From positions 31,666 to 95,665 of the forward strand of contig JAQULF010000001.1 of NCBI GenBank assembly GCA_028718745.1: DNA of 64,000 nt, written 5' to 3'. This DNA is from Patescibacteria group bacterium (GTDB taxonomy: Bacteria; Patescibacteriota; JACPGU01). Below the pieces are notes generated by a model. That model saw only the letters and a list, made by a program, of their open reading frames with translations. It did not search any database and was not told the origin of the DNA. The stretch's first letter is position 1. The number at the start of each line of letters is the position of its first letter. Shown one piece after another: positions 6,418 through 60,431 of the stretch. A program made the translations under genes and the position numbers.

Positions 6418-8205
6418 CTAGAGCTTCTGTAACTCGTAGAATTTTCGATAAGCCCCGCCTCGTTTTTTGATTAGATCTTTATGCTTGCCTTCTTCAACCA
6501 CTCTCCCCTTATCCAAAACCAAGATTCGATCCGCCTTGCGAACTGTGGAAAGGCGATGCGCGATGATGAATGTTGTTCTTCCTGTCATTAATTCCTCAAG
6601 CGCCGCCACTACTTCTCTTTCACTTTTCGCATCCAGCGCCGAAGTCGGCTCGTCTAGAATTAAAATGCGAGGATCTTTCAAAATCGCTCGAGCAATCGCA
6701 ATTCTTTGTTTTTGTCCTCCGGAAAGTTTTACTCCGCGATCGCCAACCAACTGATTGTACTTGTTTCTGAATTTTTGAATAAAGTCATGCGCAAAAGCTT
6801 TTTTGGAAGCTACTAACATTTCTTTGTCGCTGGCTCCAAAACAACCATATTTGATGTTTGCCTTAACCGTATCATTAAAAAGCAAAATCTCTTGCGGCAC
6901 TATAGCAATTTTTCTTCTCAAAAACTCCAGGTCAATTTTCGAATTTTCCACTCCATCAATATATATTTTCCCTTTTTGCGGCTGGTAATAATTGGAAATA
7001 AGATCGGCCAAGGTGGTTTTACCTACACCCGATTCGCCAACTAGTGCGATGATTTCTCCCGGCTTAACGCTAAAGCTGATATCATTCAAAACATCCTGAT
7101 TCTTTTTTTCATATTTGAAAGATACATTTTCAAATTTTACCGATCCCGCGATATCATTCATTTTTACCGCATCTTTTGGGGTATAATTTTCCGGCTTAAC
7201 ATTGATGATATTTTCCGCTCTTTCAACACTGATCAAAATGTTTTGCATATTCTGCCATTTATTAACCATACTGGAAAATGGCGAGAAAAGCATGGCGATA
7301 TAAGTGTTGTACATCATTAGCTGACCAATGGTAATTTGGCCATTCCAGATCAGAATTATGGAATAGGAAAAAACAAATATCTGTACAGCCAATACCATTC
7401 CGCGATAAAAAAGCTGATTTCTCTGCCAAATCTTAAGGTAGTGCAATAGAAAATTAAGTCCTTTTTCTATAAAGATATTTTTTACTTTCTTTGACTCATA
7501 TTCTTCTGCGACATATTGTTTTACATTTTGAATGTTTATCACCACATCATAACTATGGCCATAAGCCTTGTTATAACCCTTATTCATTTTACGGCGCAAT
7601 CCGGCCAAATCAGGAGTAATTTTGAATAGAAGATAGACATAGATAGCCAAAGCTATCACCACAACTGTCGTCAAAAACCAGCTGACAAAGAACATGAAGA
7701 TAAGCGCGAAAATGACTCCCAAAAATTGAGGGAGGAGATCGGCCACTATACCGCTAAAAACATTGTAGATGTTACCGCTGGCTCTATTTAATTTATCCAT
7801 CACATCCCCAAGTTTGTGGTTTTTTGTAAAAGACAAGGGTAATCTCAAAATAGCCGCCACCCCATCATACATATAAGCTACTTCGGCGCTTTCCGCTAAT
7901 AAACTTACCATGCGATCCAGTCTCCAACTAATCAGATCCGCAATTGCTTTTGCCACCGCCCATAAAACGAGGTAAACAAAAACTGCCTTCAATACATAGC
8001 TAAGAAGGTGAATATCGCTAGGTGTCACTATGCCATCAATAACTTTTCCGGAGAGATAGGGAACTACAGTATTAAAAACAGCCACCAATACACTGGCGAC
8101 CGATATCCCGATCAGTTCTTTTTTGTAGCGAATAAAATGTCTTTTCAAATAGCCGCTTTTGGCAACCATCTGCCGAAATGTCAGCTTATTCTTTTTCTTT
8201 TGCAT
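6418..8205 (-). CDS. ABC transporter, fused permease/ATP-binding (type I exporter, MsbA-like)
   Basis: 595 aa; 6 TM N-terminal domain; Walker A GESGVGKTT, signature LSGGQKQRIAIARA, Walker B ILILDEPTSALD. Confidence 0.9.
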   Translation of the reverse strand: MQKKKNKLTFRQMVAKSGYLKRHFIRYKKELIGISVASVLVAVFNTVVPYLSGKVIDGIVTPSDIHLLSYVLKAVFVYLVLWAVAKAIADLISWRLDRMVSLLAESAEVAYMYDGVAAILRLPLSFTKNHKLGDVMDKLNRASGNIYNVFSGIVADLLPQFLGVIFALIFMFFVSWFLTTVVVIALAIYVYLLFKITPDLAGLRRKMNKGYNKAYGHSYDVVINIQNVKQYVAEEYESKKVKNIFIEKGLNFLLHYLKIWQRNQLFYRGMVLAVQIFVFSYSIILIWNGQITIGQLMMYNTYIAMLFSPFSSMVNKWQNMQNILISVERAENIINVKPENYTPKDAVKMNDIAGSVKFENVSFKYEKKNQDVLNDISFSVKPGEIIALVGESGVGKTTLADLISNYYQPQKGKIYIDGVENSKIDLEFLRRKIAIVPQEILLFNDTVKANIKYGCFGASDKEMLVASKKAFAHDFIQKFRNKYNQLVGDRGVKLSGGQKQRIAIARAILKDPRILILDEPTSALDAKSEREVVAALEELMTGRTTFIIAHRLSTVRKADRILVLDKGRVVEEGKHKDLIKKRGGAYRKFYELQKL

Positions 8206-14265: not shown

Positions 14266-15000
14266 TTACTCAAAATCGCTGCCCCAGACCCGGTCGGCCA
14301 CGCGCTCAAGGCGACACAGCGGAAACATGGACCAGAATTTTTTCTCCTGACCAGGGAAAGTGTAGTGCGGCGCGTAACTTGTTACCTGCAGTTCCTTGAA
14401 ACGAGAATGCAGGTGAGGAGTTAGTACCGCCAGCATTTTCCCGAAAGAAGAGGTCATCGTCTTGGCGTCAAGGAGATCTTTTGAGTTGCCATTCGGCTGA
14501 ACCACCTGTTCGAAGTAGCAATTATGTCCGCACGCGCTACCCCAGCGGAAGACTTCTGGGTCGAGACATTTGCTGACTTCTTCTTCGATTGAGCGAGGAT
14601 CATCCGAGATCATCTGACCATGCGCGAGTCTCCACTCAATTTCGGCTTCGCACCAACTCTGCCGGTTGTAGGAATATTCTATGAAGCCATTCCAGTAGCA
14701 GTGCTTGTAATTCTCGTCCCAGCGGCCGTTTTCGTCCGGTCCGTTACCGAATTGTTCGGTCAGAGCCAACATCACAATGAAGGCCTTGCCAGGCACATTG
14801 AAAAACAGACGCGACTCCTGGGCGAATCGGAACATGTCCACATGGTAATGGCTTGTTTTGCTGTTCATCGTGACCCATGCCATGTATCTGAATCCTTTCC
14901 TTATCATTTCATCCATCAATCGCTGGAAATACGCTTTTTCTGCTGTTTTGTAAGGAGCCATTGGTATCCCTCCGAATTGGATTTGAGGGCTGGGCATCAA
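14266..15000 (-). CDS. hypothetical protein, Trp/Cys/His-rich (GC-rich island)
   Basis: 244-aa ORF with much higher GC than flanking genes; hairpin terminator at 14228-14262; no recognisable domain. Confidence 0.4.
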   Translation of the reverse strand: MMPSPQIQFGGIPMAPYKTAEKAYFQRLMDEMIRKGFRYMAWVTMNSKTSHYHVDMFRFAQESRLFFNVPGKAFIVMLALTEQFGNGPDENGRWDENYKHCYWNGFIEYSYNRQSWCEAEIEWRLAHGQMISDDPRSIEEEVSKCLDPEVFRWGSACGHNCYFEQVVQPNGNSKDLLDAKTMTSSFGKMLAVLTPHLHSRFKELQVTSYAPHYTFPGQEKKFWSMFPLCRLERVADRVWGSDFE

Positions 15001-15260
15001 AAAACAGATGCCTAAACCGCATCTAAATTATATAGCAAAAAATAAATTTGTCAATATCTTTCCGGCCTATTTAAGCCAATAATCTTCAAATAAGCTTCCC
15101 GTTTTTACAAACAGCGGGGAGGGATTCCTGCTCGCTCCGACTCGCGGCCGGGGCGCTACACACAGAAGCCTTCGCTATGGCTCGGCTTCTATTCGCGCCC
15201 TTCGAATCCTTTCCAACATGATACTAAAAAATGACTCCTTAGAGTCATTTTTTAGTATAA

Positions 15261-15347
15261 CGGAGAGGGTGGGATTCGAACCCACGAGGAGCTTGCGCCC
15301 CTGACTGTTTTCAAGACAGTTCCATTCGACCACTCTGGCACCTCTCC
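15261..15347 (-). tRNA. tRNA-Ser (anticodon UGA), type II with long variable arm
   Basis: minus-strand read GGAGAGGTGCCAGAGTGGTCGAATGGAACTGTCTTGAAAACAGTC...GGTTCGAATCCCACCCTCTCCG; anticodon loop CTTGAAA; long variable arm; no encoded CCA. Confidence 0.85.
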
Positions 15348-15489
15348 ATATCGCTTCTTAAATATACCAAATAAAGAATGTTTTTTCAATTGAAAATAAT
15401 GGGGGAAGACAAATGTCTCCCATAAAACATCATCCATACAAAAACAACAGTTGATTTAACTGTTGTTTTTATCTATAGTGAAATAGAGC

Positions 15490-16395
15490 TTGTGGCTTCT
15501 GTCACAGAACCAAAACATTAATCAAAAGACCATGTCAGCTTACGATGACTTTCAAAATAGATTCAAACTATTAGCCAGCAAGAATCCACATCTGGTTATA
15601 AATACTTTGTCTAACATTTTTACTATGAGGCTAATCGGCAATAAAACCCATGGTGATTTAGCCGAAATTGGAATGGCCGAATTTATCAATCAGTTTATGT
15701 ATGACTTTAAGAGTATCCATGTCGGCAAGGATTTATTTCGAGCCAAAGAACACGAAGAAGACATTATTATTATCAATGAAATTACAAAAACCGAATTCCC
15801 ATTAAGCTTAAAAGCGTACGGCGACGGTCCTCTCCAGCTTTCGACCGATAGTGATCAAAAAATGTTTCCATTCTTGGAAAAACAGGGAAGAAACATTACG
15901 GATAGAGACAAGATCAAAAAAATCTTTCAGTCAAAAGAATTTGCGGATTTTGATGCGATTAATGTTATGCCTCTTATCTATGATGAGAAAAAACAACGGT
16001 GCAACATAATGATTTTCGATCATAAAAAAGCTATGAGTAAAACAGAAAGAATTATCTTTATTGATAAAAATCAAAGATTTGATTCAGAAACGAGAAGGGT
16101 AATTCCAGGCAAGGGTAGATCGCATCCTATTTTTATGTTTGTTGATAAAAAAAGCAACTACATTTGTGAAGTTCGGTACGGTGGCGCATCCGCCAATGCT
16201 TTACAGAGAGGCTTGTGGACGCATACAAAAAACGCCGTTTCCTATTTTGATTCTTTGACAAACGGCTGGATTGATTATTCTCACAATCACGCTCTTGTAA
16301 CATTATTTAGTCTGGCACTTAACAGTTCGGAATATGGTCATAAATTGGCCAATGAAATATTGCAAAAAGACATTGATAGACTCAAAACGCTATGA
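15490..16395 (+). CDS. putative type II restriction endonuclease (cognate to downstream Dam-like methyltransferase)
   Basis: 301-aa ORF with no homology recognised; stop overlaps MTase start (ATGA); very AT-rich; alternative start MSAYDD at 15532. Confidence 0.4.
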   Translation: MWLLSQNQNINQKTMSAYDDFQNRFKLLASKNPHLVINTLSNIFTMRLIGNKTHGDLAEIGMAEFINQFMYDFKSIHVGKDLFRAKEHEEDIIIINEITKTEFPLSLKAYGDGPLQLSTDSDQKMFPFLEKQGRNITDRDKIKKIFQSKEFADFDAINVMPLIYDEKKQRCNIMIFDHKKAMSKTERIIFIDKNQRFDSETRRVIPGKGRSHPIFMFVDKKSNYICEVRYGGASANALQRGLWTHTKNAVSYFDSLTNGWIDYSHNHALVTLFSLALNSSEYGHKLANEILQKDIDRLKTL

Positions 16396-17582
16396 GCAAT
16401 CAACAAGATATATTTGGGAAAATAATGGTCTCAACGCCAAAAACACAGGGAATAAAATATGCCGGATCCAAACTGAAAATTTTACCCTATATTATTGATA
16501 TTGTCTCGGAATTAAAAGGAGTTAAAAAAGTGCTCGATGGTTTTACAGGAACAACTCGTGTCGCGCAAGCGCTCGCCCAGCTTGGTTATGATGTGACTGC
16601 CAGCGATATTTCCACTTGGTCGGAGGTTTTTGCCAATTGTTATTTGAAATCAAAAAAACCGGATGAGTTTTATCAAGATATTATCAACCATCTCAATGAT
16701 CTCAAGGGTTATGATGGCTGGTACACGAAGTATTACGGCGGAAAATTAACAGGGGATGATAAAAGGCCGTTTCAAGTAAAAAATACGCGCAAATTAGATG
16801 CCATAAGAGATGAAATAGAAAAATTGAATCTGGAGTGGGTTGATAAATGCGTGATTTTAACCAGTTTAATTTATGCGCTCGACTCTGTCGATAGCACTCT
16901 CGGGCATTATGTAGCCTATCTTTCTGAATGGTCGCCGAGATCACATAATGATCTGGTATTAAAACTGCCAAAAAGGTTTGAAGGCGAAGGTAAGCACAAA
17001 GTAATCCGGAGCGATATTTTTGAGACTATTGCAAATGATGAATATGATCTAGCTTATTTTGATCCGCCCTATGGCTCCAACAATGAAAAAATGCCACCTA
17101 GTCGAGTTCGCTACGCATCTTATTATCACATTTGGACAACTATTATAAAGCATGACAAGCCGGTTGTTTTTGGAAAAGTAAATCGCCGAGAAGACAGTCG
17201 GGATTTGGTAGCTGGTTCGGTATTTGAAGAATTTAGAAAGGATAAAAATGGTTCTTTTGTCGCTATGCAGGCGTTGCGCAAATTGGTAAGAGAAACAAAG
17301 GCGCGCTATATATTGTTGTCATATAGCTCCGGTGGTAGAGCCACAAAACAGGAACTCAACGACATAATAAATGAATCGGGTAAATTATTAAAGGCTGTTG
17401 AAATTGACTACAAGAAAAATGTGATGGCTAATATGCGCTGGACGCACGAATGGATCAATAGTGATGAAAAATATCATGAATATCTTTTTCTAATGGAAAA
17501 GAATCCTGTAAAAAGTAGCTATTTAGATCAAGAGCGAATATTTATGAATAAAAAAGTTCTGGTTTGCAATCCGATTGGTTAA
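16392..17582 (+). CDS. N6-adenine DNA methyltransferase, Dam/D12 class
   Basis: N-terminal IKYAGSKLKILPYI (Dam KWAGGK-like motif), LDGFTGTT, catalytic YFDPPYG (DPPY). Confidence 0.8.
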   Translation: MSNQQDIFGKIMVSTPKTQGIKYAGSKLKILPYIIDIVSELKGVKKVLDGFTGTTRVAQALAQLGYDVTASDISTWSEVFANCYLKSKKPDEFYQDIINHLNDLKGYDGWYTKYYGGKLTGDDKRPFQVKNTRKLDAIRDEIEKLNLEWVDKCVILTSLIYALDSVDSTLGHYVAYLSEWSPRSHNDLVLKLPKRFEGEGKHKVIRSDIFETIANDEYDLAYFDPPYGSNNEKMPPSRVRYASYYHIWTTIIKHDKPVVFGKVNRREDSRDLVAGSVFEEFRKDKNGSFVAMQALRKLVRETKARYILLSYSSGGRATKQELNDIINESGKLLKAVEIDYKKNVMANMRWTHEWINSDEKYHEYLFLMEKNPVKSSYLDQERIFMNKKVLVCNPIG

Positions 17583-18920: not shown

Positions 18921-19400
18921 ATGGCAAACACAAATACAAAAGAAAATCGCATCTTGCTCCAATGGAGAGCCGGTGATGAAAAAAAAGATCCCAATACTAT
19001 TGTTTGGATGGTGATTTTATTCGCTCTTACCAGCGCCTCTCTAGTTTATAACTTTGTCCTTCACGAATGGATGGTGGGAATAGTTTTTGCTTTTATGATT
19101 GTTATTCTGATTTGGTATTTTTTCGGTTCTGCCAAATCGGTTGATATTGCCCTAACCACTAATGGAATTCAATTAAATAAACAGTTTTATGATTTTGAGA
19201 ATATCAAAGGATATTGGTTTTCGGAAAGAAGCGGAACTTTTTACATTGAACCGAAAAAAAGAAGTGGCATGGTCATATCTTTTCCGATTGGCAACAAGAA
19301 AATTGAAGAAATTCAGAAAAATCTGCCTGATTATCTGACTGAAATTGAAGGTCGCGGCGAAGATATCCTTGACCGCATCACCCATCTGCTACACATGTAA
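18921..19400 (+). CDS. hypothetical membrane protein
   Basis: 159 aa, two N-terminal TM helices. Confidence 0.5.
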   Translation: MANTNTKENRILLQWRAGDEKKDPNTIVWMVILFALTSASLVYNFVLHEWMVGIVFAFMIVILIWYFFGSAKSVDIALTTNGIQLNKQFYDFENIKGYWFSERSGTFYIEPKKRSGMVISFPIGNKKIEEIQKNLPDYLTEIEGRGEDILDRITHLLHM

Positions 19401-19471
19401 TCTTCCAAAAAATTAAGAAAAATGATACAATAATCCGGTGTTGGTTGGATTATTTTTTTATTTAAATGTAG

Positions 19472-19543
19472 GTCCTCGTAGTTTAATGGATAGAATGCGG
19501 CCCTGCGAAGGCTGCGATCCAGGTTCGATTCCTGGCGAGGATA
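19472..19543 (+). tRNA. tRNA-Arg (anticodon GCG), G1-U72 acceptor pair
   Basis: cloverleaf: acceptor GTCCTCG/CGAGGAT, D-arm with GG, anticodon stem CGGCC/GGCTG with loop CTGCGAA, T-arm CCAGGTTCGATTCCTGG; discriminator A. Confidence 0.6.
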
Positions 19544-19559
19544 TTTAATTGTAGCAAAG

Positions 19560-19625
19560 GGTTCGCCCAGTCATCCGACTGGGCGACCGATCGAATGATC
19601 GGTCGATTCCTAGTGGGGATATTTT
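19560..19625 (+). other. tRNA 3-prime-end-like remnant: two GC-rich hairpins plus degenerate T-loop/acceptor copy
   Basis: gcccagt-catccg-actgggc and gaccgatc-gaat-gatcggtc hairpins then ggtcgattcctagtggggata, resembling the tRNA 3-prime end ggttcgattcctggcgaggata. Confidence 0.4.
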
Positions 19626-19628
19626 TCT

Positions 19629-19640
19629 TGTCATCCTCGA
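19629..19640. repeat. Solo copy of 12-mer terminal repeat TGTCATCCTCGA of the MITE-like family
   Basis: identical to left terminal repeat at 46312-46323. Confidence 0.5.
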
Positions 19641-19832
19641 GCTTCTGCTCCGTACTCGGACAGAAAATCGGGGATCCAATACAACAAGAATATATAGTTC
19701 CTGATTGATTTTTATATTTTTTAATGATAAGATTTTATTTAAGAGGGCGCTGTTTGCCCTTTTTGTGTTTTATGTATCTTAAGAACTTGACGATTTCAAT
19801 AATTGAAAAAATAAAAAAACGGGGGTGTCACT

Positions 19833-20960
19833 GTGGCAAAAAAATCAGGAAATGAGTATGCGGATGCAGGAGTGGACTACACAAAGCTGGAAGCTTTCAA
19901 AGACATGATGATCGAAGTCGGCAAGCGCACCACGGGATTCCCGAACATTCGCAATGTATGCGTCGTTACTGACGCAATCCATGCGCACGGCGCGGTTTTC
20001 GAGTACACCGGCGATCAGCCTCATATCTGGTGTAAGACTCAGGAGGGGCTCGGAAACCTGAACTGGATCGCCGAGTGGATGCTTCAATTCGACGGCACGA
20101 AACGCAGCCGTTATGATATCCTCGGTCGCGCAGCAGCGCTTCTCATCGCGATTGATGTCATCGCGCAGGGAGCAATGCCGGTAATCTGGACGGATGAAAT
20201 CGCCGCGGGAGACAGTGACTGGTTCACCAACAAACAGAGGGCGGCCGACTATGCACAGGGATGCTTCGATGTCTGCAAGGAAATCGGCATGGCTCTGCCG
20301 GCCGGCGAATCACCCGCGCTCAAGTATCTCATCAAAGCGGAGCCGCCTGTTACAAGTGCTCCGTCATTGAGCGGATCCATAACCGGCATAATCGCTCCGA
20401 AAAGCCGGCTTATCACGGGCGCAAAATTGCGAGCAGGAGATGTGATTCTGGGCGCTCCCTCATCAGGGCTTCATTCTAACGGAATATCGCTCGTGATCAA
20501 GGAGGTCATGAAACTCTCGGATCAGTTCCTTACCAAGCTCAACGGCCAGACAGTGGGCGAGGAATGTCTCATTCCGATTCCATCGTATGTCAAATTGGTC
20601 GAAGCCCTACTCGAAAACGAAATCGAAATCCACGCCATATTGCCGGCAACCGGAGACGGCGTCGGCAAAATCGCGTTCGACAAACGCCCGTTCACCTACC
20701 GGGTCCACACATGGTGGCCAAAGATACCGCCGCTGTTCCTTTTCATGAAAGAACTGGGCGTGACCCTCGAAGGATGCCTCAAAACCTTCAACTGGGGCGC
20801 CGGAATCTACTTCTATGTGCCACGCTCAAGCGTTGACTCGGCAGTGGAAGTCGCCGCGCACGCCGGGTATGATCTGCTCGAACTCGGCCGGGTTGAAGAA
20901 GGAGAACGAAAAACCATCTTCGAGCCGGAAAGCGTCACGCTTCCCCCGCCGGGAGAATAA
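19833..20960 (+). CDS. AIR synthase-related (PurM superfamily) protein, GC-rich, GTG start
   Basis: N-terminal YADAGVDYTKLEAFK like PurM YKDAGVDI; conserved APSSGLHSNGISLV (PurM GxHSNGxSL motif); ORF much GC-richer than surroundings; RBS aaacggggg before GTG. Confidence 0.6.
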   Translation: MAKKSGNEYADAGVDYTKLEAFKDMMIEVGKRTTGFPNIRNVCVVTDAIHAHGAVFEYTGDQPHIWCKTQEGLGNLNWIAEWMLQFDGTKRSRYDILGRAAALLIAIDVIAQGAMPVIWTDEIAAGDSDWFTNKQRAADYAQGCFDVCKEIGMALPAGESPALKYLIKAEPPVTSAPSLSGSITGIIAPKSRLITGAKLRAGDVILGAPSSGLHSNGISLVIKEVMKLSDQFLTKLNGQTVGEECLIPIPSYVKLVEALLENEIEIHAILPATGDGVGKIAFDKRPFTYRVHTWWPKIPPLFLFMKELGVTLEGCLKTFNWGAGIYFYVPRSSVDSAVEVAAHAGYDLLELGRVEEGERKTIFEPESVTLPPPGE

Positions 20961-20994
20961 GAAACCCAACGAAAGTTTTCACGAGGATTCACAT

Positions 20995-21030
20995 CGCCGC
21001 CGGCCTTTGGCCGGCGGCGATTTTCTTTTC
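20995..21030 (+). terminator. Rho-independent terminator
   Basis: perfect hairpin cgccgccggcc-tttg-gccggcggcg then T-run. Confidence 0.75.
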
Positions 21031-29431: not shown

Positions 29432-30246
29432 TCAAAAGGTGAATTCGGCAAAACCCAAAGACCCAAAAGAACCAAAACTATACCGGCAATAAGGTGTAGT
29501 TTTCTTATATTTCTCTGCTTCCAATGTTCGGTTTTGTCTACTCTCAAAAATCCTAAATATACACCTAACATAATTACTATCAATGGTAGAGAAAAGAGAA
29601 TATTGTAATACGCCAGAATCGGAAGAATCAAAAGCTTGCTGGTACTTTGGGATAAAACACCTAAGACAAAAACATAAGGTCCGCCGGTACAAGGTAGTTC
29701 AAAAGCGGTAACTAAAACACCGGTCAAAAACGCAACCGGAACAGTCGTAGCTTTGGCTAAAAGAAGCGACATTTTTGGTCTCCATTTTCTCGGAATTTCT
29801 ACAAGAAATCCGCCGCCGCCATACCAGAAATAATCCTTGATATTGAGTAATCCCATCACAGTTCCGAAGATACCCATTATCCAGTGAAATATGGTTGGGT
29901 TGATCCATGTATTGATTTTTAAAGCATAAAAAATACCTGCTCCGAAAAGGAAGTAAGTAATGTAAAGTCCGATGATAAAAGCCGATCCGACTTTCAAAAT
30001 CTTTTTTCGGTCGCCAAAAAACACGAGCGCGGATAAAACAAATAGGAGTACTGCAATAGCGCAAGGATTGATTGAGTCAACAAAAGCTGATGAGGTTATC
30101 AGCCAAAAAGTCGGTACCTTGGGCGCAAGACAATCTGTATTTTGAATCGTGCAAGTTCCCGCAGCCCAGGTAGCCGCTGGCGCGGCCAAAGAAAACAAAA
30201 AAACAAAAAAACAAAAAAACAAATTTTTCCAATTTATTTTCTTCAT
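29308..30246 (-). CDS. DsbD/CcdA-like thiol-disulfide transmembrane protein
   Basis: 312 aa, signal peptide, multiple TM, paired Cys motifs INPCAIAV and ELPCTGGPY; 3-prime end overlaps smpB by about 120 nt. Confidence 0.45.
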   Translation of the reverse strand: MKKINWKNLFFCFFVFLFSLAAPAATWAAGTCTIQNTDCLAPKVPTFWLITSSAFVDSINPCAIAVLLFVLSALVFFGDRKKILKVGSAFIIGLYITYFLFGAGIFYALKINTWINPTIFHWIMGIFGTVMGLLNIKDYFWYGGGGFLVEIPRKWRPKMSLLLAKATTVPVAFLTGVLVTAFELPCTGGPYVFVLGVLSQSTSKLLILPILAYYNILFSLPLIVIMLGVYLGFLRVDKTEHWKQRNIRKLHLIAGIVLVLLGLWVLPNSPFDYIIPLLDSLFKSLFFISSRLSHFFLLFANPISSLIIPFLR

Positions 30247-30374
30247 AAACAGATTTTATCATAAATAGCCAGATTTTCCAAGAACAAAAAGAAATCTCGG
30301 CTTGCCGAGATTTCTTTAAAATTGTTTTCTTACTTTCTTGTTTTCTTGCTTTATTGCTTTCTTGTTTTTTTGTC

Positions 30375-30932
30375 CTAAAACTGTACCTTTACCGCTTCTC
30401 TCTCCGCTGCTGCCGCTTCAAACATCAACTTGGGAGTTTTGAATCCTAGAATGCCGGCAACCAACATGGTTGGAAACACAGCAATTTTGATGTTAAATTC
30501 TCGAACATTGGCATTGTAGTATCTTCGAGAAACCTCAATCTTATCCTCGGTTTCGGTCAATTGAGTCTGAAGATCCAAGAAATTTTGATTCGCTTTCAAA
30601 TCAGGATAAGCTTCAGCTACGGCAAAAAGAGATTTCAAGGTGTTGGTTAGCATATTTTCCGCTTCCGCTCTATCAGCCGGAGTCTTGGCATTCATGGCTG
30701 CCGTTCTGGCCTTAGTAACTTCTTCAAAAACTCCTTTTTCATGAGCTGCATAGCCCTTGACTGTTTCAACCAAGTTTGGAATCAGGTCATATCTCCTTTT
30801 TGTCTGCACATCAATGTCGGCAAAAGCCTCATTGCAGCGGACATTTAAATTAACCAATCCGTTAAAAATAGCAATTATCCATAAAAGAATAATGGATCCA
30901 ACTACGATTAATCCAATTACTAGTGATGACAT
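30375..30932 (-). CDS. lemA: LemA family protein
   Basis: N-terminal TM then NGLVNLNVRCNEAFADIDVQTKRRYDLIPNLVETVKGYAAHEKGVFEEVTKAR typical LemA. Confidence 0.85.
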   Translation of the reverse strand: MSSLVIGLIVVGSIILLWIIAIFNGLVNLNVRCNEAFADIDVQTKRRYDLIPNLVETVKGYAAHEKGVFEEVTKARTAAMNAKTPADRAEAENMLTNTLKSLFAVAEAYPDLKANQNFLDLQTQLTETEDKIEVSRRYYNANVREFNIKIAVFPTMLVAGILGFKTPKLMFEAAAAEREAVKVQF

Positions 30933-31073: not shown

Positions 31074-31174
31074 TTGTCATTCCGGTGCTTCTGATGTAAT
31101 CATCAGAAAAACCGGAATCCAGGCCTGGATCCTTGATTTACTGTTGAGTACAACAGTGCTCAAGGATGACAACT
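31074..31174. repeat. MITE-like repeat element copy A (imperfect TGTCATYC ... AGGATGACAAC termini)
   Basis: shares gatccttgattt, ctgttgagtacaacag / ctgatgagtacatcag and aggatgacaac with copy at 46312-46472. Confidence 0.65.
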
Positions 31175-31212: not shown

Positions 31213-32964
31213 ATGAAAAAAATCCTTTCCTCAATCTTCTTGCTTTCTTGCTTTCTTGCTTTCTTGCTTTCTTGTCCCCCCGCTTCCGCCCGAACCCCCG
31301 ATCAAATTTACGATGATTATGTCCAAGATCTAACAACCGATATTATTGTAAACCAAGACTCTTCCTTAGATATTACCGAAAATATAACCTGGGACTTTGC
31401 CGATATTCCTGATAAACACGGTATTTTTCGAATGTTGCCTACTTTTTATCAGAAAACGAACAGTGAAAAGGTAAAAATACCCATCGAAAATATTAGCGTT
31501 ACCGACCTTAATAATAATCCCATACCATATAGTGAATCGACCAGTTCCGGTATCTTGAGCTTGAAAATCGGCGATGCAGACAAGACTGTCAGTGGGATTG
31601 TGAACTATGTTATTAAGTATAGATATAAGAATACTATCCGTTTCGACAATCAAAATTTTGATGAATTTTACTGGAATCTTAATGGTAATTTTTGGGAAAA
31701 GGAAATTGATAAATTTACCGCCAACATCACTTTTCCATCAGGAATCACAAAAAATAATGTAATTGAAATTAATAAATATGACGGTAGTTTTGGGTCTAAA
31801 AGTAATGTTTTATCAGACTATAAGTGGATCGCTGACAATACTATTCAGGTGACCAGCCAAAAAACTCTGTTGCCAAAAGAGGGCATTACTCTCTCGGTTA
31901 CTTTTCCAAAAAATATCATTTCTCCACCTGTTTTATCGTTTTGGGAAAAATACGGCGATCTGATTCTCGGGCTACTTCTTTTGGCACTGCCTATTCTAGT
32001 CTTTTTAATCTGCTTCACACTGTGGTGGAAATACGGCCGTGATATTGGCCCGGGCCGTGCCGTCGCACCTGAATTTGAAATTCCGGACGATATGAATCCG
32101 ATGGAAATGAGTGTTTTTTTAAGTAACGGCAGTCTTAAGTCCAGCGCTATCTCGGCTGCCATTGTGAACTTAGCAGTTAGGGGGTATTTGAAAATTGAAG
32201 CTGTACCAAAACAGGGAATATTTTCATCTGCTGATACCAAATTGATAAAATTGAACAAAGCGACCGAGAAATTGACTGATGCGGAAAAAAATCTATTAAA
32301 TTATCTCTTGGGAAGTAGCAATGAAGTAAAAATTTCAGACCTAAAAAATCAATTCTATAAATATATTCCAAAACTTAAGGAGACTTGTTTTAATAAACTA
32401 TCCGATCAAAAGATGTTCGAAAAGAAAGGGTTTGGCATTCAGTCAACTATGCTTGTCATCGGCGCTCTCGGGATAGGAGGATTATTTTTCGCCCCAGCCA
32501 TAATCTCTACTCCGATTTTTTATGTGATTTCCATAGTTTCAATTGCCATTATCTTTATCTTTGCCGCTTTGATGCCTAAAAGAAGTCCTGAAGGTGAAGA
32601 CCTGCTGTGGAGAATCAAAGGGTTTAAGATGTACATGATGACAGCCGAAAAATACCGCCAGAAATTTATTGAAAAGGAAGGTCTTTTTGAAAAGTTTCTG
32701 CCTTATGCTATGCTCTTTGGCATTACCGGTCTTTGGATTAGCAAGATGAAAGAAATTTACGGAGAAGAGTATTTTAATACTTATCATCCGATCTGGTATA
32801 CAGGATATATTGGGAATTTTAATATCGATAATTTCAGCAGTCAGCTTTCGGCCGTATCAAGCTCTATGTCCTCAACCATGAGCTCATCTCCTTCTTCTTC
32901 CGGTTCCGGAGGGGGAGGCTTTTCCGGTGGTGGTGGTGGCGGTGGCGGTGGCGGAAGCTGGTAA
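31213..32964 (+). CDS. DUF2207-type membrane protein with C-terminal Gly/Ser-rich tail
   Basis: 583 aa; signal peptide, large extracytoplasmic domain, TM segments, C-terminal SGSGGGGFSGGGGGGGGGGSW; genomic pairing with lemA is typical. Confidence 0.7.
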   Translation: MKKILSSIFLLSCFLAFLLSCPPASARTPDQIYDDYVQDLTTDIIVNQDSSLDITENITWDFADIPDKHGIFRMLPTFYQKTNSEKVKIPIENISVTDLNNNPIPYSESTSSGILSLKIGDADKTVSGIVNYVIKYRYKNTIRFDNQNFDEFYWNLNGNFWEKEIDKFTANITFPSGITKNNVIEINKYDGSFGSKSNVLSDYKWIADNTIQVTSQKTLLPKEGITLSVTFPKNIISPPVLSFWEKYGDLILGLLLLALPILVFLICFTLWWKYGRDIGPGRAVAPEFEIPDDMNPMEMSVFLSNGSLKSSAISAAIVNLAVRGYLKIEAVPKQGIFSSADTKLIKLNKATEKLTDAEKNLLNYLLGSSNEVKISDLKNQFYKYIPKLKETCFNKLSDQKMFEKKGFGIQSTMLVIGALGIGGLFFAPAIISTPIFYVISIVSIAIIFIFAALMPKRSPEGEDLLWRIKGFKMYMMTAEKYRQKFIEKEGLFEKFLPYAMLFGITGLWISKMKEIYGEEYFNTYHPIWYTGYIGNFNIDNFSSQLSAVSSSMSSTMSSSPSSSGSGGGGFSGGGGGGGGGGSW

Positions 32965-34006: not shown

Positions 34007-35015
34007 TCATGCTGCTGTAGCAGCGGGAAACCAGCGGAAGGAGAAACGCTGCGTACCTTCCGCGGAATGGCTAGGACGAGCTCCGCCGACACGGATTCCG
34101 CTGGCATCGGAGCCACCGAAAAAGATCGGGTTGCCATCACGAGAAAGCGCGCGCGTCCAGCTCCAGAGATTTTCGAAGATGTTTTGACCTATCTGTTCGC
34201 GAGTGGCTGCGGAAAAGAGCAACCCTACGGCGGGAGAGGGCGAGCAGAACATCTGGTTTATTTTAAGGCCTGCCAGAATTATGGCGCCTTCTTGCCACTC
34301 GTTCCCTTCGATGAGAAAATTAATTCTGTTGTATTTCGCCTTGTTGAATTCCCGAACCGCTTCTTTGACTTCCATCGGCAGCACTGTCTCTTTATAAATC
34401 TGATTGCAGATGAAATCGCGGTGCATCTGAGTGTGCCGAAGAAAATTTTCTCCACCTGTGTTGGGGATGGGTTGAAGAGAATGCATCATCCAACCGGATT
34501 GTATGGGATCGGTAAAGAAGCTTTCTTTGCCTCCTCCATACCGGTCGGTATCGTAGAGCACCTTGCCCCAGCGTCTTCCTCCATACCGGAGTATGAGCTT
34601 TTCGTAAATCTCCTTCATTGACATGCCGCCCGGCCAGTAAATGAAGAAGTGCGGAAACACCGAATCGACATATCTCTGGAACTCCCATCTTCGGATCATA
34701 ATCGGCGGGAATTTATTGATCCCAATGCCGAAAAGATCACTGATGGTTTCCTTCGTCGCGATGAGCTGATAGCGCCTTTTCCCTGCGATTTCCAGCATCT
34801 CCTTGTAAGGAATCGCAATGGGCGGATCATAGTCAACTATGATTGGCGGCTTCGTTTTTATTGAACCAACTGCCGGATGACCAAACGCTTTCAGAACCTT
34901 CCGCCCGGCCACTATGTCATTAAAATCCTTGCGTGACAACTGGTCCCCTACCATCGCCACGAAATCCGAGAGCTTTTTGTACAGTACCTCCGATATCCAA
35001 TCTTTCTTTTCAGAC
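34007..35015 (-). CDS. hypothetical protein (GC-rich island)
   Basis: about 336-aa ORF starting MSEKKDWISEV; GC much higher than flanks; no recognised domain. Confidence 0.4.
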
Positions 35016-35258
35016 ATAACAACTCCTCTCCCGCTTTCGGCGAGTAGCCCTATCATGTCCGGGCTTTGGACACATTTGCCGCCTTTCGGGCGGTTGACCT
35101 TAGCTTTCAGATTTCAAGGTGCAATTTTATTCTATATTATTCTGGCTTATTTTTCAACATTTCTTGTTATAGCTAAAAAAAATAAATCCCTTGACGATTT
35201 TTTTATAAGATATATAATTAAAACTATACTGAATATATTACCAATAACCGTACGCTAT

Positions 35259-37348: not shown

Positions 37349-37370
37349 TTAATAATTCTAATACATTTAA

Positions 37371-37753
37371 TGGACCTGGAGGGAATCGGACCCTCGTGCA
37401 AAAAGTTAAAAAAGCAGCCTCTACAAGTTTAGTTCCGGTTGGTATTTTGGACAGAAGTAACTTGTCCCGCCAAAGGCGGGAAACCGAAACAAAATAATTC
37501 TATCCTATCCTTAATAGTCTTAACCCCGCCTACCAAGGAATACCTGGGCGGGGAGCAGCCCAATAAGTTGACACCGCATTCATATCCTTGGGCGAAATAT
37601 GGTGCGATGCCTGCTTGTCGTTTTTTAGGCGAAAGCAGGGGCAAAATTTGTTTTGCCTTGTGTTGTTGTTTGATTAGTTTTAAGAGTTTACAAACATCAC
37701 TCTACTTGCATCCGCTTTTTTAAGGATCTTTTTGGCGATACCAATGCAGGCCC
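37371..37753 (-). ncRNA. ssrA: tmRNA (SsrA)
   Basis: minus-strand 5-prime GGGCCUG pairs with 3-prime CAGGUCC-A giving G3-U70; T-arm GAGGGTCCGATTCCCTC; internal tag frame GGC AAA ACA AAT TTT GCC CCT GCT TTC GCC TAA (GKTNFAPAFA) about 96 nt from 5-prime end; TATAAT just upstream. Confidence 0.8.
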
Positions 37754-42455: not shown

Positions 42456-44450
42456 ATGAAGAAGAACAAGGCGGGTTCGGCTGTTCCGGTGTTGGAATAC
42501 CCGGAGATCGATCTGTGGAAGAGGAAATCGTCTCCAGAAGATTCCCTCCAGATCATCAACAAGGAAGATTTCCCATTCGATCAGATCATGGAAAATCTGG
42601 GGCTTGAATGCCGAAGATCGCTGGCAGGAAGCTTCGGTATTCGCGACATCACCGAGATCGTGAGGCGTCAGGAACTCATGAAGCTCATCATGTATGAAAG
42701 AAAGCTTTGTGAATTCCTGATCAAGGAGAAGAATCTGGCTACAGATTTCCCCCAAGATCACAACAGCTTCATCCAGTACCACAATCCGGACAGGGTTCAT
42801 AACCCCTTCTGGACAAGGATTCATGAACTGCTGGAAATGCTGGATAGGATGCCAGTTCGCGATGCGGAGCTCGTAAAGCTTCGCACCTTCCTGAAGTCAT
42901 CGCTCAAGTTCGAGGAAATCGAGCGGGTAATGGCGCGGCGCATCATTGAAAAAATGGATGCGATGGCCGTCATTGAGGGAAGTATCACCTTCAAACTGGG
43001 TAAAGCATTAAATACAGATAAGGTGATAAGGAAGCAGGTCTACGGATATCGCATCTACTCGCTTTCACTAAGCAACGCCGGTAAACAGCCATACCCGGCG
43101 TGGACGAAGCAAGCGGGCTGTATGAAAACGATCAAGATTACCCGTATCGGCGAAATCTATACCGACTGGCGTAACGATCAGGAGCTTGCGACGGCGCTCA
43201 AAGGCAGAGAAATCACGGATCTGAGCGAAGAAATGATCCGGGATATAAGCGATGCAACCAATCTGTTACTCCAGAATTGGGATGACAATCGCATCAAAGA
43301 CACAGAATTAGGGAGAGAAATCCGGAACAGGTTCAATGGCGGTATAGTTAGTGTGAGCTTCGCGTACAGCATCGAAGGGCTGAAGCTCCATATTTACAAT
43401 CTCGAACCGACGCCGGAAATCCGCTCCTTTTCCTATGAGTACCCCGTGTGTATTCCGCGCAGGGAGGGCAAGAAAATCATCACTATGCGTGCACGGATTG
43501 CGACGAAAACGGAACAGTTCATTCGGCAGATGAACGCGGGTGCGGTGGCATATTTTCTGAAGGACGGAAATATCGAGTTCTTCGATAAAGAGCACCGCGT
43601 CAGCTCATCCAGATTCGACGAAGAGCACAAGCACTTTGCTCTCCCGAATATCTTCAAAGATCCCGAGATCAAGCCGATCGCGGATGCATTGCTGAAGTTG
43701 CGCAGGTTCTGCGCTGACCAGTTTGAAATCCTGGGACAGCTCGCGGAGCTTGTCAGCAATTGCAAGGCGCTCGCGGACAGAATCGGATCGCCCATAACCT
43801 TCCCGGAAATCTTGCCGGATTCACAAAACATCGTCGCATTTGAGGAACTATTTCCCGTTCATCTGGCATTGCAAAATCGGGGCGCAGACAGTGGAAAGAT
43901 TGTGCCGATCAGGCGACTCCCGCCTGTGAACGGATCGATGTTGGCACTGACAGGTGCGCACGGCGGCGGCAAAACCGTGACCGAGCTGACGCTCGCCATC
44001 AATCTTTGGCTGGCACAGAGCGGTCTGCCGGTATTCGGCAAGGGTTTCAAATTCAACATCAAAGATACAATCGGGCTGGTCTTCATCAATCGCGGAGAAG
44101 GATCCACCTGTGAGCAGCTCGTGACGAAAATCATGGAAATCCTGGTTGTGCTCAAAGTATCCGACCACAAGAAAATTCTCGTCATCATCGACGAGTTGGG
44201 TACGGGTACACAGGAGGAGAGCGGACTCGAGCTGGGCAGGGATCTGCTCAAAAAGCTCCATGCCGAACACACCAGTGTGCTTTTCAGCACGCAGATTACA
44301 CTACTAGCGCAGTTTGCAGTGGACAATCTCGGCGCGCAGAGCTTCATGTTCGCGCCCGACCACAGCATTCTACCTGGCATCGGAAAGGGAGGCATGGAAG
44401 ATCTTCGATCGAGACTGGGAGTGGATAAACTGCTCTTGGTCGAAAATTGA
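42456..44450 (+). CDS. Large GC-rich protein with C-terminal MutS-domain-V-like ABC ATPase
   Basis: Walker A LTGAHGGGKTVT, Walker B/D-loop VIIDELGTGTQEESGLELG resembling MutS/MutS2 nucleotide-binding domain (GPNMGGKS ... DEIGRGTSTYDG); about 450-aa N-terminal region unrecognised; strong GC3 bias unlike host. Confidence 0.55.
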   Translation: MKKNKAGSAVPVLEYPEIDLWKRKSSPEDSLQIINKEDFPFDQIMENLGLECRRSLAGSFGIRDITEIVRRQELMKLIMYERKLCEFLIKEKNLATDFPQDHNSFIQYHNPDRVHNPFWTRIHELLEMLDRMPVRDAELVKLRTFLKSSLKFEEIERVMARRIIEKMDAMAVIEGSITFKLGKALNTDKVIRKQVYGYRIYSLSLSNAGKQPYPAWTKQAGCMKTIKITRIGEIYTDWRNDQELATALKGREITDLSEEMIRDISDATNLLLQNWDDNRIKDTELGREIRNRFNGGIVSVSFAYSIEGLKLHIYNLEPTPEIRSFSYEYPVCIPRREGKKIITMRARIATKTEQFIRQMNAGAVAYFLKDGNIEFFDKEHRVSSSRFDEEHKHFALPNIFKDPEIKPIADALLKLRRFCADQFEILGQLAELVSNCKALADRIGSPITFPEILPDSQNIVAFEELFPVHLALQNRGADSGKIVPIRRLPPVNGSMLALTGAHGGGKTVTELTLAINLWLAQSGLPVFGKGFKFNIKDTIGLVFINRGEGSTCEQLVTKIMEILVVLKVSDHKKILVIIDELGTGTQEESGLELGRDLLKKLHAEHTSVLFSTQITLLAQFAVDNLGAQSFMFAPDHSILPGIGKGGMEDLRSRLGVDKLLLVEN

Positions 44451-46311: not shown

Positions 46312-46472
46312 TGTCATCCTCGAACTCTATTTCAACTTAACCAAAAATATATATAAAAAAGTTGAAGAGAATATCAAGGATCTGCTATTTTATTGTGCTA
46401 AATTACTTTTTTTATTCCTGTCAGAGATCCTTGATTTCCTGATGAGTACATCAGGAGCTCGAGGATGACAAC
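46312..46472. repeat. MITE-like repeat element copy B with perfect 12-bp terminal inverted repeats TGTCATCCTCGA / TCGAGGATGACA
   Basis: left TIR 46312-46323, right TIR 46459-46470; internal hairpin cctgatg-agta-catcagg; in divergent typA/DUF456 intergenic region. Confidence 0.7.
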
Positions 46473-58647: not shown

Positions 58648-58712
58648 AATGGCCCCTTTCTAAAAAATTATTTTTATATTAATTGGATTGTTGCTTTCTT
58701 GTTTCCTTGTCT

Positions 58713-59480
58713 TTAAAGTTCTTCGTCTTTCAATAATTCCGCCAATTTCTTCTCCAGCTGTTCTTTTCTTTCCGCTTCGGTCATTTGCTTCCTAACCGGT
58801 TTTCTCTCTTCCATTTCAGCTTCTTTGGCCGGTTTTTCCTTGTCCGCATCACTTTGTGAATCAATGTGGGCGGGTTCAACAATCTCTTCCTTAGCAATTT
58901 CTCTCTCCTTTTTATTTGTTTCAACCTCTCCCTGCTCGGGCGCAATATATTGCGCCCCTACGGGTTCGTCTGATTCTTCTTCTTGATTCTTGATTCCTAA
59001 TTCTTGATTCTCTTCTTTAATTTTCTCAACCGGAGCTTCAACCGCTTCTACACCAACTGGCGGATTTTCTTCTTTGACTTCCTCAACTTCTTTCTTTTTA
59101 GCAAACTTTCTTGGTCTTCTCGTTTCTTCTTCGTTCTTTTCCTCAAAACCTCTCTTCGGTTTATCTAGTGCTCCTTCTTCAAAGAAAGGGGATCCTTCTA
59201 TAAAATCGACGATCAAATAGCGGAGAATTTTTTCATTAAGGTTTAATTCTTTGTTTAATTTATTGGTTTCTTCAGGTTTAATATCAAAAATGAAGACATA
59301 ATAATAGCCAAAACTATTTTTGGCAATTTTATAGATCAATTTTCGCTTACCCCAAAAGACCTCTTTTTCAACCTTGCCGCCTTTGGATTCAATCAGTTTT
59401 TTGACATCTTTCGCAATATCCGCCGCTCTGTCTTCGGTGTAATTTTCACTAACAATAAACGAGATTTCGTATTTTTTCAT
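58713..59480 (-). CDS. rpsF: 30S ribosomal protein S6 with about 150-aa Glu/Lys-rich C-terminal extension
   Basis: MKKYEISFIVSENYTEDRAADIAKDVKKLIESKGGKV...WGKRKLIYKI; rpsF-ssb-rpsR order. Confidence 0.85.
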   Translation of the reverse strand: MKKYEISFIVSENYTEDRAADIAKDVKKLIESKGGKVEKEVFWGKRKLIYKIAKNSFGYYYVFIFDIKPEETNKLNKELNLNEKILRYLIVDFIEGSPFFEEGALDKPKRGFEEKNEEETRRPRKFAKKKEVEEVKEENPPVGVEAVEAPVEKIKEENQELGIKNQEEESDEPVGAQYIAPEQGEVETNKKEREIAKEEIVEPAHIDSQSDADKEKPAKEAEMEERKPVRKQMTEAERKEQLEKKLAELLKDEEL

Positions 59481-60247: not shown

Positions 60248-60431
60248 GACGACACCTCCATATAAGATTTTAAGGCGCGGTCTTCAGCCTTAATTAGTTA
60301 AATTATAGCACAATATAGCAAAAAAACAAATTAAATTTGTTTTTTTGATTTCTTGCTTTTTTGTTTTCTTATCCTATTTCCCCAAATTCCTCAACGCTTC
60401 TTTGAGTTTTTTTCGGAGTCTTTGACATTGC

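Follow-up and report, generated by a model that had tools for sequence, protein, structure and literature searches.

A putative decayed tRNA copy with a double-hairpin module in its T-loop at the tRNA-Arg(GCG) recombination hotspot of a Patescibacteria genome

Integrases that target tRNA genes usually use the segment from the T-loop through the 3′ end, and in archaea tRNA genes occur with introns at non-canonical positions or as split genes. The subject here is a tRNA-Arg gene with the anticodon GCG, together with the sequence on its 3′ side, in a 64,000-nt stretch of DNA from a Patescibacteria group bacterium (GenBank assembly GCA_028718745.1, contig JAQULF010000001.1, positions 31,666–95,665 of the forward strand). 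This whole stretch is called the window, and coordinates given without a contig name are positions in it; related contigs carry L numbers. Bacteria of the candidate phyla radiation (CPR), to which the organism belongs, apparently lack tRNA-Arg(ACG) and use GCG together with UCG and CCG (Shulgina & Eddy 2021, eLife, PMC8629427). Directly downstream of the intact tRNA-Arg(GCG) gene, both ends of the tRNA unit are repeated. We regard this, with a little more confidence than doubt, as a relic of recombination in which a second tRNA unit, lying head-to-tail with the intact one in a recombination hotspot and carrying a conserved hairpin module in its T-loop, has decayed. The parts of the two units are listed below.

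19460–19471, + strand: leader repeat copy 1, ATTTAAATGTAG, directly 5′ of the tRNA; contains the −10-like motif TATTTAAAT
19472–19543, + strand: tRNA-Arg, anticodon GCG (G34), 72 nt, no encoded CCA, G1–U72 pair; found by ARAGORN and Rfam
19543–19554, + strand: leader repeat copy 2, ATTTAATTGTAG, start of the putative decayed unit
19559–19565, + strand: GGGTTCG, from the end of the T-stem to the middle of the T-loop in the putative decayed copy
19566–19605, same match on either strand: 40-nt double-hairpin module (18 + 22 nt) splitting the T-loop
19606–19624, + strand: ATTCCTAGTGGGGATA followed by TTT; covers the rest of the T-loop, the 3′ strands of the T-stem and of the acceptor stem, the discriminator and the trailer of the putative decayed copy

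Unit 1 consists of the leader and the tRNA (19460–19543, 84 nt). Unit 2 (19543–19621, 79 nt) consists of the leader, CAAAGGGTTCG, 40 nt and then ATTCCTAGTGGGGATA; TTT directly follows both units. The two leader copies are identical at 11 of 12 positions (P ~2e-5 at fixed register), and the second keeps the −10-like motif. At the other end, CGATTCCTAGTGGGGATATTT (19604–19624) repeats the 3′ end and trailer of the tRNA, CGATTCCTGGCGAGGATATTT (19526–19546), for which shuffles of the window expect 0 matches. The local alignment from the T-loop to the trailer covers 22 nt with 19 identities at a repeat spacing of 78 nt, its three differences are all transitions, and none of 2000 shuffles reached its score. 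The leader and the 3′ block are each present twice in register, with a divergence of 8–14%. A reading made from the sequence alone, without database searches (the sequence-only reading), had described a degenerate copy of the tRNA 3′ end at this place. The copy is real but amounts to more than a 3′ fragment, since the 5′ leader is repeated too. Because the 12-nt leader and the 22-nt 3′ block both recur in register, the arrangement points to a degraded second unit of leader plus tRNA. Chance similarity or an assembly artefact is a highly improbable source of it. The shuffles speak against chance, and the leader repeat is independent evidence. The window does come from a metagenome-assembled genome, and several related contigs break in or just after this tRNA; a separate assembly (Logan contig L009), though it may share the sample, is nevertheless identical across the region, and the copies have diverged by substitutions, unlike those of a collapsed or duplicated assembly.

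Between its two ends, the body of unit 2 (tRNA positions 1 to ~50) is no longer tRNA-like. A permissive Rfam scan of 19300–19900 (E ≤ 10) returned the tRNA-Arg and noise, and no second tRNA. No third copy of the tRNA 3′ end lies in the window within three mismatches. The spacer was also considered as a mutated tRNA body, which was rejected as the similarity is not significant. When it was compared with the regions downstream of 125 other tRNA-Arg loci, only L009 matched, plus a weak match in L083 that is real on inspection. A likeness of the spacer to L117 (gcaaagggt) was rejected as chance (E = 4.9).

The 40 nt that split the T-loop of unit 2 belong to two hairpins, CGCCCAGTCATCCGACTGGGCG at 19564–19585 and GACCGATCGAATGATCGGTC at 19585–19604, each of which occurs once in the window. 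Folding of the 229-nt region, compared with shuffles, gives z = −5.6. Excising the 40 nt joins the flanks into GGGTTCG|ATTCCTAG, the sequence of a T-loop and the 3′ strand of its stem. A homologous module is located at 397–436 (within 386–452) of L083, a CPR-like metagenome contig unrelated to the window. There it occupies the same T-loop junction, between GGTTCG and AATC, of a tRNA-Arg copy that is displaced and adjoins an intact tRNA-Arg(GCG). The two modules align without gaps, are identical at 26 of 40 positions and show the same partition into 18 and 22 nt; they share the loops CATYCR and GAAT and differ by five compensatory stem-pair changes. The sequence-only reading had noted two strong GC hairpins between the tRNA and the 3′-end copy. 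They are present and fold strongly, but are to be seen as a conserved 40-nt module within the T-loop of the decayed copy and not as random filler. A covariance model built from the two sequences (window and L083) found no further member in 0.9 Mb. The model matches both modules on the reverse strand too; the module is thus a single hairpin type present twice in inverted orientation, which gives no indication of its strand. The double-hairpin region has no Rfam match. On reading the sequences, the T-stem halves that flank the module are mutually non-complementary in both the window and L083, as would be expected at a recombination joint.

These structures could also belong to a gene in use. Unit 2 would then be a functional small RNA gene derived from a tRNA, with the double hairpin as its body, and might act in processing or regulation or as a decoy. 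Such a gene would suit two hairpins that are perfect and GC-rich in a genome of 39% GC (the value for the window), with identical loops and compensatory changes in two distant contigs, as well as the −10-like motif retained in the leader copy and a region that folds far better than its shuffles. The unit is dispensable, however, since L012 and L015, the closest relatives of the tRNA, do not have it, and the unit is found in 2 of ~125 loci. Beyond the T-loop, the window and L083 have no conserved flanks, and a module that matches on either strand is better suited to a palindrome at the DNA level. With no Rfam match either, we regard a small RNA gene as quite unlikely.

Relatives of the locus were compared for the presence or absence of the remnant, as the sequence-only reading had proposed. 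Syntenic relatives are contigs that share the gene upstream of the tRNA, which encodes a DUF5673 protein (61–80% identity). L012 and L015 have a clean tRNA and no remnant, which represents an empty site. The slot on the 3′ side of the tRNA holds the following in the relatives.

L012: an unrelated open reading frame (ORF) of 334 aa
L014: an AIRS-family paralog, 21% identical
L015: no gene; the slot is empty
L016: restriction-modification genes
L017: a gene for a large serine recombinase, directly next to the tRNA

The content differs in every relative, and the 3′ side of this tRNA-Arg is a recombination hotspot. In L017 (2835–4076, − strand) and in L018, the large serine recombinase gene (Recombinase and Zn_ribbon_recom domains) ends inside the 3′ end of tRNA-Arg(GCG), which is direct evidence that mobile elements use the tRNA-Arg site. 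Upstream of the DUF5673 gene, the window (15490–17582) has a D12-class adenine methyltransferase gene and a partner ORF, likely a restriction-modification pair, and the same D12-type pair is found downstream of the tRNA-Arg on the other strand in L016 (2029–4717).

The relatives also contain further copies of tRNA parts. A direct repeat of the 3′ third of the tRNA lies within 400 nt downstream at 9 of 109 non-redundant loci, compared with 0 of 98 upstream and 1 of 1090 in shuffles. Seven loci have an antisense copy of the 3′ third. In L068, L021 and L063 the tRNA 3′ end (10–20 nt) and the terminator hairpin are mirrored antisense downstream of the tRNA-Arg; these palindromes are perfect, with arms of up to 36 nt, and are centred on the terminator loop. 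At the left junction of L117, an inverted repeat of 12 nt encloses an 8-nt spacer (the acceptor strand) and resembles a recombinase core site.

Several of these observations would agree with a classical attachment-site (att) scar, the trace of a tyrosine-integrase element that entered the T-loop and 3′ end and was later deleted, leaving ~60 nt in which the hairpins are the remains of attP arms. The repeat runs from the T-loop through the 3′ end, the usual sublocation for integrases that target tRNA genes. Similar 3′ repeats at the nine related loci, the core-like junction of L117, the double hairpin directly against the core in two genomes and the non-complementary T-stem halves beside the module in both would fit as well. 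The 3′-segment repeat and the empty site expected of an att site were both found. The duplication, on the other hand, is not limited to a core, as the 12-nt 5′ leader is duplicated as well and is left unexplained, and no integrase gene or element DNA is present between or beside the repeats. The only recombinase at this tRNA in the relatives is of the large serine type. To our knowledge, large serine recombinases make no long direct repeats. We consider a classical att scar unlikely. The sequence-only reading had likened the layout to an att-site scar left by integration at a tRNA. The 3′ repeat, the foreign purM gene described below, the empty sites and the hotspot stand; a scar that brackets an island is only partly supported, given that the repeats enclose ~60 nt, no recombinase is present, the leader is repeated and purM lies outside the repeats.

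In some relatives, one tRNA-Arg gene is nested in another. The resident tRNA-Arg(GCG) of L014 is cut after AATGGATA in the D-loop, and the nest (6583–6761) runs from the resident 5′ part through a 16-nt arm, a complete second tRNA-Arg(GCG) and the complementary arm to the remainder of the resident gene. With the insert spliced out, the outer tRNA is still called by ARAGORN as tRNA-Arg(gcg). L118 (~7200–7480) contains a complete nest in the D-loop with the same cassette as L014 and homologous arms at offsets −19 and +9. In L057 (1361–1508) the intact tRNA is followed by the right arm and by positions 22–73 of the outer tRNA, and the left part is missing. The cassette arms of these three contigs are homologous (CCTGCCYGCC... 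/ ...GGCAGGCRGG). In L083 (167–452), the inner tRNA is located in the anticodon loop of another tRNA-Arg and is flanked by a different 10-bp inverted repeat. The complementary arms that flank the inserts of L014, L118 and L083 are 10–16 bp long. In L118 and L083, additional small inserts appear to be present in the loops of the outer genes. In a multiple alignment, the window remnant and a neighbouring TGTCAT palindrome (see below) occupy the position of the 3′ end of the L014 outer tRNA and its palindrome. Scans of viral contigs for the tRNA, the end of the repeat at 46312, the double hairpin and the nest junction returned nothing but L141, a coding sequence without a tRNA.

On the reading that we favour, a decayed second copy left by recombination, an event at the tRNA would have put a new functional copy ahead of the old one. 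A tandem duplication could have done this, as could the entry of a tRNA-bearing segment that replaced the gene, of the sort that is intact in the relatives with nested tRNAs. The old copy would then have lost its body, with the leader, the T-loop and the 3′ end remaining. The double hairpin may belong to the recombination site, or it may be a small palindromic insertion that can survive only where the tRNA copy is redundant. The relatives and the window could form a series in which an intact nest loses its left part and then erodes, with the window at the eroded end.

Some points weigh against this reading. As in a tandem copy or pseudogene, both ends of the unit are repeated in register, whereas its interior could not be derived from the tRNA body, global and local alignments being no better than those of shuffles; it is from the two ends of unit 2 that a former full copy is proposed. 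A domain scan of the ORFs at 15.4–23.4 kb found no recombinase gene near the tRNA in the window. The module is conserved between two sequences, the window and L083, and perfect GC-rich stems with compensatory changes in an AT-rich genome could mean a functional module and not a relic. Between the window spacer and the flanks of the cassettes in L014, L118 and L057 there is no significant similarity, so that position and analogy are what would link the window to the nested cassettes.

A broader proposal, which we put forward tentatively and with more doubt than belief, is that tRNA-Arg(GCG) genes of CPR bacteria are a recurrent target of small non-coding insertions that are tied to, or tolerated through, a replacement tRNA copy. 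There may be two kinds of insert, the nested tRNA with a conserved 12–16-bp stem (L014, L118 and L083; partial in L057) and the T-loop double hairpin (window and L083). If this is true, the system would be a novel type of self-replacing tRNA cassette, a mobile unit which repairs the gene that it breaks, or a case of intron-like insertions in bacterial tRNA genes, and the window locus would be the eroded product of such an insertion process.

The gene in the slot of the window follows the remnant, separated from it by an intergenic block.

19697–19790, + strand: conserved intergenic block with a terminator-like hairpin (19741–19763), common to L012 and L014
19833–20960, + strand: PurM (AIR synthetase)-like gene, the slot cargo; Pfam AIRS and AIRS_C
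20993–21021, + strand: GC-rich terminator-like hairpin ending the foreign segment

The block at 19697–19790 (TTAATGATA..TATTTAAAGAAGGGCGCTGTTTGCCCTTTT..) is located upstream of three unrelated genes in the window, L012 and L014. It has no Rfam match and may be the terminator of the tRNA or a shared promoter or leader. On the other side, backbone homology with L015 restarts at ~21033. The slot is thereby bounded by the block, as in L012 and L014, and by the promoter of the zinc-ribbon/L25 operon, as in L015. The foreign segment of the window consists of purM and its terminator only and includes no mobility gene. The PurM-like protein scores 131 bits with the TIGR00878 purM model, under the model cut-off. 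Homologs with 60–84% identity are widespread in CPR bacteria and adjoin purD, purL and purQ in some genomes, which is why we take the window gene to be a real purM. Phage homologs of purM are of a distant cyanophage type and were set aside as not relevant.

The sequence-only reading had called the gene GC-rich and foreign, and its composition agrees. Its GC content is 0.55, against 0.31–0.41 in the neighbours, and the GC content at third codon positions (GC3) is 0.63, compared with 0.27–0.45 in 50 of the 53 other long ORFs of the window. The closest purM, in L140 (84% aa and 79.5% nt identity), has another gene context, and its homology with the window stops within ~30 nt of the coding sequence; its GC3 is 0.64 between flanks at 0.35–0.37. 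Members of the purM family in L140, L001, L002 and L008 have a GC content of 0.55–0.56 and a GC3 of 0.59–0.64, and the remaining sequence of these contigs has a GC content of 0.35–0.45. The family either moves often between CPR genomes or keeps its own composition. The window purM is horizontally acquired foreign cargo that lies outside the tRNA repeats. Its arrival was a separate event, because the block next to it also occurs in L012 and L014, where the slot genes are different. Three more genes of the window have a GC3 of 0.57–0.64 (14266–15000, − strand; 34007–35056, − strand; 42456–44450, + strand). The first adjoins the tRNA-Ser(UGA) gene and the third has a weak match to MutS domain V. 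The genome appears dotted with single foreign genes. The other GC-rich patches of the window were examined for recombinases, and none was found.

In line with the sequence-only reading, purM and the remnant could form one tRNA-linked island, with the remnant as its border. A foreign gene does stand beside a tRNA with a repeated end, its composition deviates, the slot is variable among relatives, and by eye a weak match to a terminal inverted repeat, CACGAGGATTCACA, is located just 3′ of purM. The layout already contradicts the proposal. The remnant is situated between the tRNA and purM and not beyond purM, so that no repeats of the tRNA end bound the gene and no further copy of that end is found in the window, and there is no mobility gene in the segment. 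The conserved block shared by L012 and L014, which have unrelated slot genes, separates the remnant from purM, and the L140 homology ends at the margin of the gene. We therefore regard a single island as very unlikely.

Between the remnant and the block lies a copy of a short palindromic repeat of the form TGTCATCC...GGATGACA. Three members of this TGTCAT...ATGACA family were delimited in the window.

19629–19680: compact degenerate copy of the palindromic, MITE-like repeat (MITE, miniature inverted-repeat transposable element)
31075–31171: copy of 97 nt
46312–46470: copy of 159 nt with perfect 12-bp terminal inverted repeats

The terminal 12-mer TGTCATCCTCGA is found exactly at 19629, 46312 and 46459 (− strand) and with one mismatch at 31160 (− strand) and 63566 (a possible coding region), giving 5 matches in the window where 0.24 are expected. 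About 50 nt of the 19629–19680 copy align, in inverted orientation, with the right ends of the 31075–31171 and 46312–46470 elements. The inner, subterminal hairpin of the repeat (loop GAGUAC) has a stem that covaries between copies. The sequence-only reading had identified the 12-mer at 19629 with the terminal repeat of the element at 46312, which is correct, and had taken it for a solo terminal inverted repeat, which it is not, since a degenerate second arm is present (TCGGGGATCCAA, 8 of 12 positions in agreement with the consensus right arm TCGAGGATGACA). Judged from its sequence, the copy at 19629 is an old resident member of the palindromic MITE-like family and not a solo end. L014 has a bare 20-nt palindrome, TGTCATTCCCGAGGATGACA, at 6770–6789, the position homologous to 19629 of the window, and in L140 a copy like the 46312–46470 element is located directly 3′ of purM (~1480–1581). 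The family comprises several intergenic copies of 20–159 nt in both orientations. The flanks of three copies show no consistent target-site duplication, and neither a parent transposon nor a REP-associated tyrosine transposase (RAYT; REP, repetitive extragenic palindrome) was identified in a transposase search limited to the ORFs scanned. A hammerhead-like CUGAUGAG at 46426 was considered as a ribozyme and dropped, as it is not conserved in the other copies.

The intact tRNA gene itself presents no anomaly. Its match to RF00005 scores 62 bits (gathering score 29) over the full length (model positions 1–71). The anticodon loop is CUGCGAA, of 7 nt, with U33 and G34–C35–G36, as seen both by ARAGORN and in the sequence. 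The arginine identity elements are A20 (in the D-loop AAUGGAUA), C35 and the discriminator A, by the rules of Escherichia coli, which are assumed to hold for CPR bacteria. Positions 8–65 are the same in the window and in the syntenic relatives L012, L015 and L016. The tRNA decodes CGU and CGC; among the 623 arginine codons of the window, CGC is used 139 times and CGU 61 times, so that the CGY codons are well used. The anticodon GCG reported by the sequence-only reading is borne out, with ARAGORN calling gcg at position 34, but G34 does not mark this genome. All seven distinct syntenic relatives (L010/L011, L012, L014, L015, L016 and L017–L019) have GCG at the same place. Metagenome loci with the same tRNA backbone, in a scan that permitted A or G at position 34, gave GCG in 119 of 120 and ACG in one. 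ARAGORN calls of arginine anticodons in 0.92 Mb of related loci comprised 125 gcg, 9 ccg, 9 tct and 1 acg. G34 is the normal, clade-wide state in CPR bacteria, and it says nothing about this genome in particular because it is clade-wide and already published for them. That G34 implies the absence of the TadA route is a reasonable inference, but one about the lineage and not about this locus. A tblastn search with E. coli TadA (E ≤ 1) gave no match in the window or in the related loci, which amount to about one genome-equivalent scattered over many genomes and give the search little power.

ARAGORN found two tRNA genes in the window, tRNA-Ser(UGA) at 15260–15348 (− strand) and the tRNA-Arg(GCG), both confirmed by Rfam. 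Many CPR-like contigs have a tRNA-Ser close to tRNA-Arg(GCG), with 80 tRNA-Ser calls in ~130 loci, and the linkage looks conserved. A tmRNA at 37368–37753 (− strand) scores 121 bits in Rfam and was not called by ARAGORN; its presence marks the organism as a bacterium. The proteins of the window place it among the Patescibacteria, the PurM-like and the DUF5673 protein each being 100% identical to an NCBI entry from a Patescibacteria group bacterium. Arrays with an 8-nt period (TTCTTGCT / AAAAACAA) are found at 30189–30383, 31229–31285, 58672–58728 and 60306–60382, in intergenic regions or at gene starts and in both orientations.

The useful yield of this analysis concerns the genome dynamics of CPR bacteria, whose mobile elements are poorly known. 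In these bacteria genes are exchanged at a hotspot 3′ of tRNA-Arg(GCG), among them a purine-synthesis gene that is GC-rich in every host. Broken second tRNA copies accumulate at the hotspot, with small structured modules in their loops. A dedicated survey would be worthwhile for the nested tRNA genes and the T-loop module. The anticodon is known biology, to which the present data add only that it is cleanly confirmed in more than 120 environmental loci. Should the nested tRNAs and the double hairpin prove to be a defined mobile or intron-like system, they would add a new mechanism by which bacterial tRNA genes turn over and would call for caution in tRNA annotation and in assembly, where contigs break at this tRNA.

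Several known systems come close to parts of the locus. Like MITEs and REP-type palindromes, the TGTCAT family has 12-bp terminal inverted repeats, several intergenic copies and a subterminal hairpin; it differs from them in that no target-site duplication is established, no parent transposon or RAYT has been identified and the arm at 19629 is degenerate. Attachment-site duplications at tRNA-Arg genes, such as those of Stx2 phages at argW, likewise place a direct repeat of the tRNA 3′ part beside an intact tRNA, and a generic tRNA-Arg match in a phage database is annotated with 'attL' and 'duplication due to insertion' features. The repeats of the window differ from phage duplications in their spacing of 78 nt, in the absence of an element or integrase from the intervening DNA, in the repeated leader and in the split of the repeat by a 40-nt module. 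The Mycoplasma pneumoniae group is another case of reduced-genome bacteria with a G34 tRNA-Arg and no need for inosine (Yokobori et al. 2013, NAR, PMC3711424). There, in an independent lineage, tRNA-Arg(GCG) replaced ACG after the loss of tadA by a recent change from A34 to G34 on an ACG backbone, whereas G34 in the window and in CPR bacteria is ancient and clade-wide. The description of CGN decoding in CPR bacteria (Shulgina & Eddy 2021, PMC8629427) covers the same lineage and the same anticodon, and the window tRNA is the CGU/CGC reader described there and no different from it; duplicated or nested tRNA-Arg genes are not described in that study. With the intron-bearing and split tRNA genes of archaea, L014, L118 and L083 share a tRNA-Arg interrupted in the D-loop or anticodon loop. 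The window holds a relic of such an arrangement at most, and what sets these three contigs apart from the archaeal genes is that they are bacterial and that the insert is itself a complete tRNA-Arg(GCG).

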